A stretch of DNA of 64,000 nucleotides, from the NCBI RefSeq assembly GCF_003334785.1, contig NZ_QOWV01000014.1. The stretch is one strand, 5' to 3'. The notes beneath the pieces are model-generated. The model had not been told where the DNA came from, did not search any database, and was given only the letters and a program-made list of their open reading frames with translations. Shown here piece by piece: positions 17,203-29,223 of the stretch; position 1 is the first letter of the stretch, and every line of letters starts with the position of its first letter. Both the position numbers and the translations under genes were made by a program. This stretch comes from Escherichia coli (GTDB lineage: Bacteria > Pseudomonadota > Gammaproteobacteria > Enterobacterales > Enterobacteriaceae).

Positions 17203-17216
17203 TTGATTTTAATCAG
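17203..17216. promoter_or_regulatory. FNR-like site upstream of dcuC
   Basis: ttgattttaatcag matches TTGAT-N4-ATCAA at 9 of 10 positions, about 90 nt upstream of the dcuC start codon. Confidence 0.45.
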
Positions 17217-17305: not shown

Positions 17306-18691
17306 ATGCTGACATTCATTGAGCTCCTTATTGGGGTTGTGGTTATTGTGGGTGTAGCTCGCTACATCATTAAAGGGTATTCCGCCACTGGTGTGTTATT
17401 TGTCGGTGGCCTGTTATTGCTGATTATCAGTGCCATTATGGGGCACAAAGTGTTACCGTCCAGCCAGGCTTCAACAGGCTACAGCGCCACGGATATCGTT
17501 GAATACGTTAAAATATTACTAATGAGCCGCGGCGGCGACCTCGGCATGATGATTATGATGCTGTGTGGATTTGCCGCTTACATGACCCATATCGGCGCGA
17601 ATGATATGGTGGTCAAGCTGGCGTCAAAACCATTGCAGTATATTAACTCCCCTTACCTGCTGATGATTGCCGCCTATTTTGTCGCCTGTCTGATGTCTCT
17701 GGCCGTCTCTTCCGCAACCGGTCTGGGTGTTTTGCTGATGGCAACCCTATTTCCGGTGATGGTAAACGTTGGTATCAGTCGTGGCGCAGCTGCTGCCATT
17801 TGTGCCTCCCCGGCGGCGATTATTCTCGCACCGACTTCAGGGGATGTGGTGCTGGCGGCGCAAGCTTCCGAAATGTCGCTGATTGACTTCGCCTTCAAAA
17901 CGACGCTGCCTATCTCAATTGCTGCAATTATCGGCATGGCGATCGCCCACTTCTTCTGGCAACGTTATCTGGATAAAAAAGAGCACATCTCTCATGAAAT
18001 GTTAGATGTCAGTGAAATCACCACCACTGCTCCTGCGTTTTATGCCATTTTGCCGTTCACGCCGATCATCGGTGTACTGATTTTTGACGGTAAATGGGGT
18101 CCGCAATTACACATCATCACTATTCTGGTGATTTGTATGCTGATTGCCTCCATTCTGGAGTTCCTCCGCAGCTTTAATACCCAGAAAGTTTTCTCTGGTC
18201 TGGAAGTGGCTTATCGCGGGATGGCAGATGCGTTTGCTAACGTGGTGATGCTGCTGGTTGCCGCTGGGGTATTCGCTCAGGGGCTTAGCACCATCGGCTT
18301 TATTCAAAGTCTGATTTCTATCGCTACCTCGTTTGGTTCGGCGAGTATCATCCTGATGCTGGTATTGGTGATTCTGACAATGCTGGCGGCAGTCACGACC
18401 GGTTCAGGCAATGCGCCGTTTTATGCGTTTGTTGAGATGATCCCGAAACTGGCGCACTCTTCCGGCATTAACCCGGCGTATTTGACTATCCCGATGCTGC
18501 AGGCGTCAAACCTTGGCCGTACCCTTTCGCCCGTTTCTGGCGTAGTCGTTGCGGTTGCCGGGATGGCGAAGATCTCGCCGTTTGAAGTCGTAAAACGCAC
18601 CTCGGTACCGGTGCTTGTTGGTTTGGTGATTGTTATCGTTGCTACAGAGCTGATGGTGCCAGGAACGGCAGCAGCGGTCACAGGCAAGTAA
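17306..18691 (+). CDS. dcuC: anaerobic C4-dicarboxylate transporter DcuC
   Basis: 461-aa polytopic membrane ORF. Confidence 0.92.
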   Translation: MLTFIELLIGVVVIVGVARYIIKGYSATGVLFVGGLLLLIISAIMGHKVLPSSQASTGYSATDIVEYVKILLMSRGGDLGMMIMMLCGFAAYMTHIGANDMVVKLASKPLQYINSPYLLMIAAYFVACLMSLAVSSATGLGVLLMATLFPVMVNVGISRGAAAAICASPAAIILAPTSGDVVLAAQASEMSLIDFAFKTTLPISIAAIIGMAIAHFFWQRYLDKKEHISHEMLDVSEITTTAPAFYAILPFTPIIGVLIFDGKWGPQLHIITILVICMLIASILEFLRSFNTQKVFSGLEVAYRGMADAFANVVMLLVAAGVFAQGLSTIGFIQSLISIATSFGSASIILMLVLVILTMLAAVTTGSGNAPFYAFVEMIPKLAHSSGINPAYLTIPMLQASNLGRTLSPVSGVVVAVAGMAKISPFEVVKRTSVPVLVGLVIVIVATELMVPGTAAAVTGK

Positions 18692-18731: not shown

Positions 18732-19412
18732 TCACCCACTGTGGTATATGCGTTGTGGTCTGCCAACTTTGCCGTGAACAATTTCAGCAATAATCAGATG
18801 GCGGCTGGCGCAATATTCAAGATAACGCCTGGCAGTGGTGCGGCTGATGGTCAGTGCCTGCGCCACCGTTTCTGCCGTATGTTGCACACCAGGCTCTTTA
18901 AACAGTTTTCGCACCGCGTTTAGCGTCAAGGGGTCAATGCCGGTCGGTAGCTCGTCCTTAGGTTCACCGCGAGCATAAGCATTAAACATCTCATCAATTT
19001 GCTTCTGGCTGGCGCTATCAATACTTTCCAGCATATGTTTACGCTGGCGGAAACGGGTTAGCGTTTGCCCCAGCCGTTCATAGGCAATGGGCTTAATGAG
19101 ATAATCAAATACACCACAACGTACGGCTTCAGACACCGTTTCCATATCGCTGGCTGCAGTGGTAAACACCACGTCGCCGGGATAATGCGCCTGCACCAGT
19201 TCATGCAGTAAATTAATCCCTCTACCGTCAGGAAGATAGTTATCGAGCAAGATTAGCCCCGGCTTAAAACGCTCGATCATCATTCGGGCCTGCGCCAGAT
19301 TTCCCGCCAGTAATATCTGACTGAATCCGGGAATGTGACGAATATATTCCGCATGCATCTCTGCCAGCGGCGTTTCGTCCTCAACGATCAATAGGGTTAA
19401 TGGAGCTGTCAT
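18732..19412 (-). CDS. dpiA: response regulator DpiA (CitB)
   Basis: 226-aa ORF with receiver domain (LIVEDE...LLDNYLPDG) and C-terminal HTH; overlaps dpiB 3' end. Confidence 0.93.
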   Translation of the reverse strand: MTAPLTLLIVEDETPLAEMHAEYIRHIPGFSQILLAGNLAQARMMIERFKPGLILLDNYLPDGRGINLLHELVQAHYPGDVVFTTAASDMETVSEAVRCGVFDYLIKPIAYERLGQTLTRFRQRKHMLESIDSASQKQIDEMFNAYARGEPKDELPTGIDPLTLNAVRKLFKEPGVQHTAETVAQALTISRTTARRYLEYCASRHLIIAEIVHGKVGRPQRIYHSG

Positions 19413-21039
19413 TAGGTTTCACTTTCGGAATATAGATTGAAAATAAGGTACCGCAGGGATCATTATCTTCGAGAGTGATAACACCACCGCAGCGCGTTAC
19501 GTAGCTGGCAATCAAGTACAACCCAATGCCATGTTCACCGGGCTCGTCAGCACGCGTACTGACCCCCTGCTCAAATATTTTGTCTCGTAGAGACTCTGGA
19601 ACGCCGCAGCCCTGATCGGCGACTTCAATCACCACATCATCGCCTTCATCGCTGAGGAATAATTCAACGATCTTGTTTCCTTCATCGCTACGCAGGCTGG
19701 CTTCGAAGGCGTTATCAAGTAAATTGCCCACAATGGCTGCAAACTCGGTGCTATCCAGTCCTGGCGGCAGTTGCGAAAGCTGGCTACCGGGGACAATGAT
19801 CATTTTTAGCCCCAGTTCCCGGGCGCGCTGCACTTTACCAAAAAGCAGCCCCGCCACCTGGCGATCGGCAAACGCCTCGCGCAGGCTGTCAATAAGCTGT
19901 TGCTGGGCCTGAGACTCCCCCTGCACCATCGCCAGCACGCGATCATACTCTTTCATCTGCAACAGACCATTGAGCGTCGACATCCAATTGAGATGCTCGT
20001 GTCGCAATGTACGAAGGCTCTCAACGTATTGTTTTATTTGCGTCAGTTGCGCATTGAGGGTGGAAATTTCGTCTTTACTACGAAAGCTGATAATGGCCCC
20101 CAGCAAATCATCACCTGAACGAATAGCTTCCCGGTTGGCAATAACGCTCAGACCGTTAAAGTTCGCCACCACATCCTGACGTTTTTCATCAATCTGTTCG
20201 GTAAAGAAATCGGCGGGCCTGACCACTTCAACAATGGGTTTACCCAACCATTGCCGTCCGGGGGAACTCAGCCCCAGCATCTTTCTTGCGTTACGATTGA
20301 TGGCGGTAATGTAACCATGCGGATCCACCGCAATCAGCCCTTCATAAACCGAACTAAACAGCGCCTCTTGCTGACGGACCACGCGTGCGATTTGCTTTGG
20401 CTCCATGCCCATCATCTGCCGACGGATATGCGCGGCCAGGAACCACGACAGCAACATCAGAATCCCTAACAGCACGACAAACACACCTGCCATCGGTAAT
20501 AAAAACTCAGCCCGCCAGCTATCGATTTTACTCACCAGGTAGCCAATCGACACCACGCCGATGACTTTTCCATCGTCATCAAAGATTGGCGTTTTGGCGC
20601 GCATCGCCATCCCCATTGACCCTTTCCCGGTAATGAAGTAGCTCTCCCCTTTCTCCAGCGCGCCCTGTTTGGTGAACTGCATAGGATAACCAATTTTCTC
20701 CGGATTAGGATGGTAAAGGCGGATCGAGTGCCGGTCCCCAATCACCACATAATCAAAATCGGTATCTCTTTGTAATTTGTTAGCGATGGTCGCCAGCCGT
20801 TTGTAGTCACGCGTTTTCACCGCAGAGATGACACTGTCATTGGAGGCAATAATTTTCGCCTGATTCATTGCCATGTCGCGTACATGAAGCGTTAAATAGT
20901 CCTCAAAACTGGCCGCAAAATATTGCGCCAGGGCTGCAATGACAAATATTGAGAACACCAGAATCAGCAAAAAGATACGCAGCGGAAATGCCAGTCTTTG
21001 GAAAAATGCAAACTGTTTATTCTCGTTAAGCTGCAACAT
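19381..21039 (-). CDS. dpiB: sensor histidine kinase DpiB (CitA)
   Basis: ORF 19381..21099; start at MLQLNENKQF... giving 552 aa; two TM segments, periplasmic sensor, kinase core. Confidence 0.92.
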   Translation of the reverse strand: MLQLNENKQFAFFQRLAFPLRIFLLILVFSIFVIAALAQYFAASFEDYLTLHVRDMAMNQAKIIASNDSVISAVKTRDYKRLATIANKLQRDTDFDYVVIGDRHSIRLYHPNPEKIGYPMQFTKQGALEKGESYFITGKGSMGMAMRAKTPIFDDDGKVIGVVSIGYLVSKIDSWRAEFLLPMAGVFVVLLGILMLLSWFLAAHIRRQMMGMEPKQIARVVRQQEALFSSVYEGLIAVDPHGYITAINRNARKMLGLSSPGRQWLGKPIVEVVRPADFFTEQIDEKRQDVVANFNGLSVIANREAIRSGDDLLGAIISFRSKDEISTLNAQLTQIKQYVESLRTLRHEHLNWMSTLNGLLQMKEYDRVLAMVQGESQAQQQLIDSLREAFADRQVAGLLFGKVQRARELGLKMIIVPGSQLSQLPPGLDSTEFAAIVGNLLDNAFEASLRSDEGNKIVELFLSDEGDDVVIEVADQGCGVPESLRDKIFEQGVSTRADEPGEHGIGLYLIASYVTRCGGVITLEDNDPCGTLFSIYIPKVKPNDSSINPIDR

Positions 21040-21417
21040 TGTTTTCCTTGCGGGTTGTCCCGAGCCTCTTTGACGGATGTAATTAAAATGTTGAATCAAA
21101 ATACATAGATATTAATTATGATCGTGGCAAATTTTATTCATTAAATCAATTAAATCACTTAAACCTGCGAGTCATTTCGTAATTACATTAATTAAAAAAC
21201 TTAAAATCATTAAATAAATAAAAAACCACTAACTCTATGTGAAATAAATCAAAATTTCACGCCGAAATACTCCTTAGGATGTATAGCGAAAGGAGAAAAA
21301 GATATACCTCGATCACCCCCTTTCTCCCAAGTGAAAATAAAAGGTTATCAGTTTGCAACATTGAACAACATTCGTTGCAAATCGATAACAACATGCACCT
21401 TCAGGATACTATTTATT

Positions 21418-22476
21418 ATGTTCGGCAATGATATTTTCACCCGCGTAAAACGTTCAGAAAATAAAAAAATGGCGGAAATCGCCCAATTCCTGCATGAAAA
21501 TGATTTGAGCGTTGACACCACAGTCGAAGTATTTATTACCGTAACCCGCGATGAAAAGCTTATCGCGTGCGGTGGAATTGCCGGAAATATTATTAAATGC
21601 GTTGCTATCAGTGAATCCGTCCGCGGTGAAGGACTGGCGCTGACATTAGCCACTGAATTGATAAACCTCGCCTATGAGCGGCACAGCACGCATCTGTTTA
21701 TTTATACCAAAACCGAATACGAGGCGCTGTTCCGCCAGTGCGGTTTTTCCACGCTGACCAGCGTACCCGGCGTGATGGTGCTGATGGAAAACAGCGCCAC
21801 GCGACTGAAACGCTATGCCGAATCGCTGAAAAAATTTCGTCATCCAGGGAACAAGATTGGCTGCATTGTGATGAACGCCAATCCCTTTACGAATGGTCAC
21901 CGTTATCTGATTCAACAGGCTGCGGCACAGTGCGACTGGTTGCATCTGTTTTTAGTCAAAGAAGATTCTTCACGCTTCCCCTATGAAGACCGGCTGGATT
22001 TGGTGTTAAAAGGCACCGCCGATATTCCACGCCTGACTGTGCATCGTGGCTCCGAATACATCATCTCCCGCGCTACGTTCCCTTGCTACTTCATTAAAGA
22101 ACAGAGCGTCATTAACCATTGTTACACCGAAATTGATCTGAAGATTTTCCGTCAGTACCTCGCTCCCGCGCTGGGTGTAACTCACCGCTTTGTCGGTACT
22201 GAACCCTTTTGTCGCGTTACCGCCCAGTACAACCAGGATATGCGCTACTGGCTGGAAACGCCGACTATCTCCGCACCGCCCATCGAACTGGTTGAAATTG
22301 AGCGGCTGCGTTACCAGGAGATGCCGATATCCGCTTCCCGGGTACGTCAACTGCTGGCGAAAAACGATCTCACGGCTATCGCGCCGCTGGTCCCTGCAGT
22401 CACGCTGCATTATTTGCAGAACCTGCTTGAGCACTCCCGCCAGGACGCGGCAGCTCGTCAAAAGACCCCCGCATGA
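21418..22476 (+). CDS. citC: [citrate (pro-3S)-lyase] ligase
   Basis: ORF 21331..22476; start at MFGNDIFTRV... giving 352 aa. Confidence 0.92.
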   Translation: MFGNDIFTRVKRSENKKMAEIAQFLHENDLSVDTTVEVFITVTRDEKLIACGGIAGNIIKCVAISESVRGEGLALTLATELINLAYERHSTHLFIYTKTEYEALFRQCGFSTLTSVPGVMVLMENSATRLKRYAESLKKFRHPGNKIGCIVMNANPFTNGHRYLIQQAAAQCDWLHLFLVKEDSSRFPYEDRLDLVLKGTADIPRLTVHRGSEYIISRATFPCYFIKEQSVINHCYTEIDLKIFRQYLAPALGVTHRFVGTEPFCRVTAQYNQDMRYWLETPTISAPPIELVEIERLRYQEMPISASRVRQLLAKNDLTAIAPLVPAVTLHYLQNLLEHSRQDAAARQKTPA

Positions 22477-29077: not shown

Positions 29078-29223
29078 TCATCTGATTTACAAAACACGCT
29101 AATTCGTCTTCCATAAACCAAGGCGATTAAGATTTATACATAATGCGCTGCATTGAGGAATTCCCTGAATGTGACGCAAATCACTTCAAAGAGTGAGCAA
29201 CAGTCAGTATCATCATGTGAGTT

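Follow-up and report, generated by a model that had tools for sequence, protein, structure and literature searches.

A candidate CRP-type site beneath a palindrome in the dpiB-citC intergenic region of Escherichia coli

A perfect palindrome lies between dpiB and citC in Escherichia coli, upstream of the citrate-fermentation operon citCDEFXGT, and it raises the question of what a regulator would read there: the palindrome itself, or another element that happens to share its letters. The window, i.e. the whole stretch of DNA that was analysed (64,000 nucleotides), is E. coli chromosome, and a 381-bp region of it was matched in 5420 of 5426 complete genomes. The genes on either side are annotated dpiB and citC, and the 378 bp between them have a GC content of 31%, which bears out the AT-rich divergent region described in the initial annotation. 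That annotation had singled out a perfect 7-bp inverted repeat at 21238-21260, with arms likened to CRP half-sites at a non-canonical 9-bp spacing, as a candidate operator for DpiA or a global regulator. The 23-nt string tgtgaaataaatcaaaatttcac is indeed located at these positions and its arms are 100% complementary, with a spacer that turns out to be 8 nt (aaatcaaa) rather than 9, or 14 nt if the gap is counted from TGTGA to TCAC instead. In this article, I will argue that, judged by its sequence, the functional unit is TGTGA-N6-TCAAA (21238-21253), a CRP/FNR-family site with canonical spacing, that cAMP-CRP probably co-activates citC from this site together with DpiA bound further upstream, and that the palindrome is incidental. 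The coordinates of the features are collected in Table 1.

Table 1. Features of the dpiB-citC region, in coordinates of the window
Feature	Position	Strand	Remarks
dpiB (citA) CDS	19381..21039	minus	divergent from citC; ATG at 21039
AT-rich direct repeats, putative DpiA (CitB) operators	21133..21229		direct-repeat family D1; near-invariant across genera
Candidate CRP-type site TGTGAaataaaTCAAA	21238..21253	plus	9/10 core positions, 6-bp spacer, centre 21245.5
Palindrome left arm GTGAAAT	21239..21245		overlaps TGTGA half-site; mean 1.57 bits/column (32 diverged orthologues)
Palindrome right arm ATTTCAC	21254..21260		within -35 region of predicted citC promoter
NarL/NarP-like 7-2-7 element TACTCCT-ta-GGATGTA	21268..21283	plus	14/16 positions; overlaps -10 hexamer; match count at chance level
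-10-like hexamer TAGGAT (TAnnnT) of predicted citC promoter	21275..21280	plus	starts 37 nt after T of TGTGA
Predicted citC transcription start (~21287)	21285..21289	plus	from promoter geometry
citC CDS	21418..22476	plus	first gene of citCDEFXGT; under predicted promoter at 21238-21280

Three things can be observed directly at this locus, namely the sequence, its conservation and the geometry of the promoter. Against the consensus TGTGA-N6-TCACA, TGTGAaataaaTCAAA matches at 5/5 positions of the left half and 4/5 of the right with a 6-bp spacer between them, as a pair of CRP half-sites should, and the arm pair flagged at the outset, with its 8-bp spacer, does not qualify as such a pair. A 9/10 core match is about as frequent as chance would have it in 64 kb (three observed in the window, 1.85 expected), and the sequence match alone is thus not significant; another of this quality, TGTGACGCAAATCACT, is found at 29170-29185. 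A scan for CitC with one genome per species gave 80 loci, about 45 of them with the divergent dpiB-citC layout. From the Enterobacterales, 67 citC upstream regions (from Escherichia, Citrobacter, Salmonella, Hafnia, Buttiauxella, Edwardsiella, Serratia, Pantoea, Erwinia, Providencia and others) were anchored on the element and reduced to 32 representatives less than 80% identical, in a profile whose columns 2-4 and 11-13 are fixed by the search pattern and whose 100% conservation at these columns is partly built in. The orthologous NNTGA-N6-TCANN ranks first among the CRP-like sites within 450 nt in 66 of the 67 regions, and exactly one such pattern occurs per 450-nt upstream region in all 32 representatives. 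Its left half TGTGA is nearly invariant (T at position 0 in 30/32, G at position 1 in 28/32), TCA is followed by A in 28/32, and the right half TCAAA is weak, the C of the consensus at its fourth position being present in only 2/32. Between the half-sites, the spacer drifts from genus to genus (aataaa, aatagg, agcagt, atcagg, agcaga, atttga and others) and varies at four of its six positions, with A5 and A8 unexpectedly conserved, and the orthologues therefore display what is expected of a CRP site, i.e. conserved half-sites around a drifting centre. In the 26 close orthologues, the conserved block reads T-TGTGAAATAAATCAAAA. Of the likeness to CRP half-sites, the left arm stands, for it holds a perfect TGTGA, the promoter-distal half of the site, which no other element of the citC promoter surpasses in conservation across Enterobacterales; the right arm does not, the conserved partner is TCAAA at 21249-21253 and not ATTTCAC, and with that the supposedly non-canonical spacing becomes the canonical 6 bp. 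Two records from the wider collection, a 484-bp contig labelled Terrisporobacter mayombei that is 99% identical to E. coli citC and a contig labelled Chryseobacterium sp. 18061 with an enterobacterial citC (77% identity), look like contamination or mislabelling in public assemblies. A TATGA-N6-TCAT element at a constant distance of about 88-92 nt before the ATG in five Vibrio citC loci may be the equivalent CRP-family site of promoters that are arranged differently.

The position of the site is as constrained as its letters. Counted from the T of TGTGA, a TAnnnT hexamer starts at 36 to 38 nt (mostly 37) in 32/32 representatives, and shuffled sequences place one in this interval on average 0.39 times per 32 and at most four times, while the 21 nt between site and hexamer are unconserved and the citC ATG lies anywhere between 86 and 300 nt from the site among orthologues. 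In E. coli, the -10 hexamer begins 29.5 bp downstream of the site centre (21245.5), which is the distance of a class II activator and puts the centre at about -41.5 if transcription starts, as predicted, near 21287; at the -35 position stands AAATTT, a poor -35. By this predicted start, the citC promoter has the layout of a class II activator-dependent promoter, and a simple sigma-70 scan of the region, which found no promoter, came up blank as would be expected of a promoter that depends on an activator. A known example of such an arrangement is galP1, a class II CRP-dependent promoter. Promoters of the galP1 type share with citC a site centred near -41.5 that overlaps a poor -35 and a -10 hexamer at 29.5 bp, but E. 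coli citC differs in that it appears to require a second, upstream-bound regulator, DpiA, and in that its promoter-proximal half-site is unusually weak.

Several other elements of the intergenic region merit description. The 7-2-7 element in Table 1 was scored with the NarL/NarP heptamer consensus and is conserved in Escherichia, Citrobacter and Salmonella; it could explain the inhibition of PcitC by nitrate reported in PMC12405535. Downstream of the predicted start, the citC 5' leader contains an inverted repeat of 16 nt (21344-21359/21374-21389, 88% complementary, 14-nt loop) that supplies the main hairpin when the E. coli leader is folded (z-score -2.5); across 17 genera-spanning sequences, no consensus RNA structure was found in the leader and conservation is limited to the motifs GTTATCA, CAACA and GCAACAA. 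Toward dpiB, TGTAATTAAAATGTTG at 21078-21093, 40-55 bp upstream of the dpiB start, is kept as TGTAATAAAAATGTT in Citrobacter, Salmonella and Hafnia and resembles the ArcA direct-repeat box consensus, a match that by itself is at chance level. A further conserved block in the dpiB-proximal half, at 21119-21132, contains GATC and reads GATCGTGGCAAATT in E. coli; most other genera have GATCGTTACAGATT. Antisense to the citC start, a 101-aa ORF with a GTG start (21348-21653, minus strand) corresponds to nog1, an overlapping gene described in EHEC (PMC4683798).

The conserved AT-rich repeats upstream of the site, which include TTAAATCAATTAAA (21141-21154) and ATTAATTAAAAAACTTAAAATCAT (21187-21210), are probably the DpiA sites, and experiments with a related promoter bear on how they relate to the CRP-type element. 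The DpiAB-PcitC sensor of Citrobacter rodentium was studied in E. coli in 2025, where it was induced by citrate under anaerobiosis with glucose, inhibited by nitrate and cross-regulated by host DpiAB, NarL and cAMP:CRP (PMC12405535). When C. rodentium PcitC was truncated to remove the DpiA operators, which had been mapped from EcoCyc's E. coli annotation, the response to citrate was lost (PMC12405535). The truncation primer anneals at CATCTAACTCTTTGTGAAATAAATCAAA, 11 nt upstream of TGTGA, so that the construct keeps the element and yet has lost its response; it follows that the annotated DpiA operators do not include the element and that it is insufficient alone. The reading of the element as a DpiA operator accordingly finds no support, and what is left of the original choice between DpiA and a global regulator is the latter, which the conserved CRP-type TGTGA makes plausible. 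One position within a probable DpiA operator deserves separate mention: 21207 is T in the window and in K-12 W3110 (motif TTAAAA(T)CAT, 21201-21210), and it is C (TTAAAACCAT) in all 26 aligned orthologues, other Escherichia species included. Among the 5426 complete E. coli genomes, 1155 have T and 4198 the ancestral C, and in the K-12 lineage the T could make DpiA bind less well.

Put together, the mechanism that I consider likely would have cAMP-CRP bind the 21238-21253 site and touch RNA polymerase directly, while phospho-DpiA would bind the AT-rich repeats, which lie between about -60 and -150, and the two would jointly switch on citCDEFXGT, so that citrate fermentation would gain a carbon-status input besides the citrate/anaerobic signal from DpiB/DpiA. 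From the sequence, I infer both that CRP is the bound protein and that activation is the sign of its effect, as well as where transcription starts. The glucose need reported in PMC12405535 sits awkwardly with simple activation by CRP, although citrate fermentation by E. coli is known to depend on a co-substrate, of which glucose is one.

Could the palindrome GTGAAAT-N8-ATTTCAC nevertheless be the operator, for a dimeric regulator touching both arms, be it DpiA or an Escherichia-specific factor? Its symmetry is perfect, the five Escherichia sequences that were compared do not differ anywhere in 21208-21261, and the 30-mer 21233-21262 is matched exactly at 28 or more of its 30 bases in 5346 of the 5426 complete E. 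coli genomes, with polymorphisms starting right after it (21262, 21263, 21265). However, divergence within Escherichia is too low for the invariance of the seven right-arm bases in the genus to count as evidence of constraint, and when the 378-bp region was shuffled 5000 times with its dinucleotides preserved, 40% of the shuffled sequences held one or more perfect 7-bp inverted repeats spaced by no more than 10 nt (mean 0.69 per shuffle), a fraction that rises to 61% when the spacer limit is widened to 20 nt. Three further perfect 7-nt inverted pairs occur within the same 451 nt as the palindrome. Outside Escherichia the right arm is not kept, contrary to what an operator conserved in orthologous promoters would require: its CAC, the partner of GTG, is confined to Escherichia among the 67 upstream regions, the alignment of 26 close orthologues has ATTTACC, AATTACC or ATTTATC in Citrobacter and Salmonella, and in the 32 representatives the arm averages 0.46 bits/column, its CAC only 0.14 bits, and at least six of the seven arm positions are still complementary in just two. 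For DpiA in particular, a promoter with the element but without the upstream DpiA operators is inactive. Response regulators of DpiA's family use direct repeats, and the conserved AT-rich blocks upstream have just this arrangement, which makes a 7-8-7 palindrome an unlikely DpiA target. Neither conservation of both arms nor symmetry beyond chance was thus found, and the palindromic operator was rejected, its probability being in my estimate very small; chance is the best account of the perfect symmetry, and the palindrome is a by-product. A hairpin or RNA element was rejected as well, given that the DNA hairpin is weak (-4.5 kcal/mol), no Rfam family was found and the position is upstream of the predicted citC start. 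It is similarly hard to credit that the element has no protein partner and that its conservation and spacing reflect needs of RNA polymerase, UP-element-like or otherwise, or an AT-rich promoter architecture. In favour of this, citC, dpiB, citA and dcuC are absent from the available text and supplements of the CRP genomic-SELEX paper (PMC3105977), and a literature search on the E. coli citC site found no report of CRP binding. Yet an invariant, G+C-containing TGTGA in a drifting AT-rich stretch, a variable N6 and, across many genera, a fixed 29.5 bp to the -10 hexamer are the signature of the CRP/FNR family, and CRP binding has been reported for the Klebsiella paralogue (PMC2735749). A Cra/CRP ChIP-exo paper says only that the operon is barely expressed, and a literature search with the site sequence itself gave no match.

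The main rival to CRP is its relative FNR, either alone or in dual use with CRP, so that the conserved element would be an FNR site or an FNR/CRP hybrid that gives an anaerobic input at -41.5, and although I regard this as unlikely, it is the alternative to be taken most seriously. The two kinds of site are told apart by the base 5' of TGA, which is G in CRP sites and T in FNR sites. In the citC element, this base is G in the left half in 28/32 representatives and T only in Moellerella, the FNR-specific T after TGA is replaced by A in 31/32, and the A before TCA is unconstrained (A in 14, G in 13), all of which favours CRP. The T that FNR calls for 5' of each TGA is therefore missing from the left half, GTGAA, and the right half provides it in E. 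coli, as ATCAA, with an A that is not conserved. On the other hand, GTGAAataaATCAA matches TTGAT-N4-ATCAA at 12/14 positions and is the only match with two or fewer mismatches in the intergenic region, ATCAA is a perfect FNR half-site whose TCAA is kept in 28/32, and class II geometry suits FNR too; but matches with two or fewer mismatches are common (56 in 64 kb). The expression of citC is exclusively anaerobic (PMC4683798), and a published regulatory network names FNR as a citC regulator (PMC5311112), but DpiB/DpiA itself can explain anaerobic control. The asymmetry of the site, with a CRP-type GTGA on the left in 28/32 lineages and an FNR-type TCAA on the right in 28/32, invites the bolder suggestion that the asymmetry itself is selected and that a hybrid site is read by CRP and FNR, joining carbon and oxygen status at one -41.5 position beside a response regulator, and to this I would give a still lower probability. 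A precedent is the hlyE promoter, where a site at -61.5 is read by both CRP and FNR. Dual CRP/FNR sites of the hlyE type have in common with citC a GTGA half, a TCAA half and an anaerobic operon, but the citC site is predicted at -41.5 and not at -61.5, and dual binding at citC is a conjecture. Elsewhere in the window, dcuC, an anaerobic transporter gene that starts at 17306, is preceded at a distance of about 100 bp by TTGATTTTAATCAG (17203-17216), which agrees with the FNR consensus at 13/14 positions and probably serves dcuC as its FNR site.

With CRP as the favoured protein, the closest comparison is Klebsiella pneumoniae, whose citS-citC region was taken from a plasmid-collection record. 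The citC-facing promoter has TGTGActtaaaTACAA with a TGn-extended -10-like CGAAAT at +37, the citS-facing promoter on the opposite strand has TGTGAttatctTCACT with TACTAT at +38, and a AATTAATTAA...AAAACCAT box lies between the two sites. Meyer, Dimroth and Bott (2001, J Bacteriol 183:5248) are said to have placed both Klebsiella CRP sites at -41.5. In the motif comparison with Klebsiella that the initial annotation had proposed, the modular layout is the same in a paralogous operon of the same pathway, with TGTGA-N6 located 37 nt before a -10-like hexamer and an AT-rich CitB box upstream, but the promoters are not collinear in a MAFFT alignment and the comparison covers the modular layout only. 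The two systems also differ in the divergent partner (citS-oadGAB-citAB in Klebsiella, dpiBA in E. coli), in the number of CRP sites (two in Klebsiella, one per promoter, whereas only one was found in E. coli), in the right half-site (TACAA versus TCAAA) and in that CRP binding was demonstrated in Klebsiella and is inferred in E. coli. Both CitB and CRP are reported as activators that bind the Klebsiella region (Meyer 2001, via the available text of PMC2735749). In our own searches, Klebsiella CitC was absent among the best 120 protein-search matches, and the genome scan found no promoter region upstream of citC in Klebsiella spallanzanii because a transporter gene runs into citC there.

The citC CRP-type site is probably ordinary and already known, since control of citrate-fermentation promoters by CRP is established in Klebsiella and referred to for E. 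coli, and the importance of the present analysis beyond annotation of the citC promoter is small. Its value lies in a corrected reading of the motif, in which the partner half-site is canonically spaced and the element is of CRP type and not a DpiA operator. It also lies in the resulting model of the citC promoter, with a CRP-type site at the predicted -41.5, a NarL-like element that overlaps the -10 hexamer and, further upstream, putative DpiA repeats; the model could aid the use of PcitC in biosensors for citrate or the gut.
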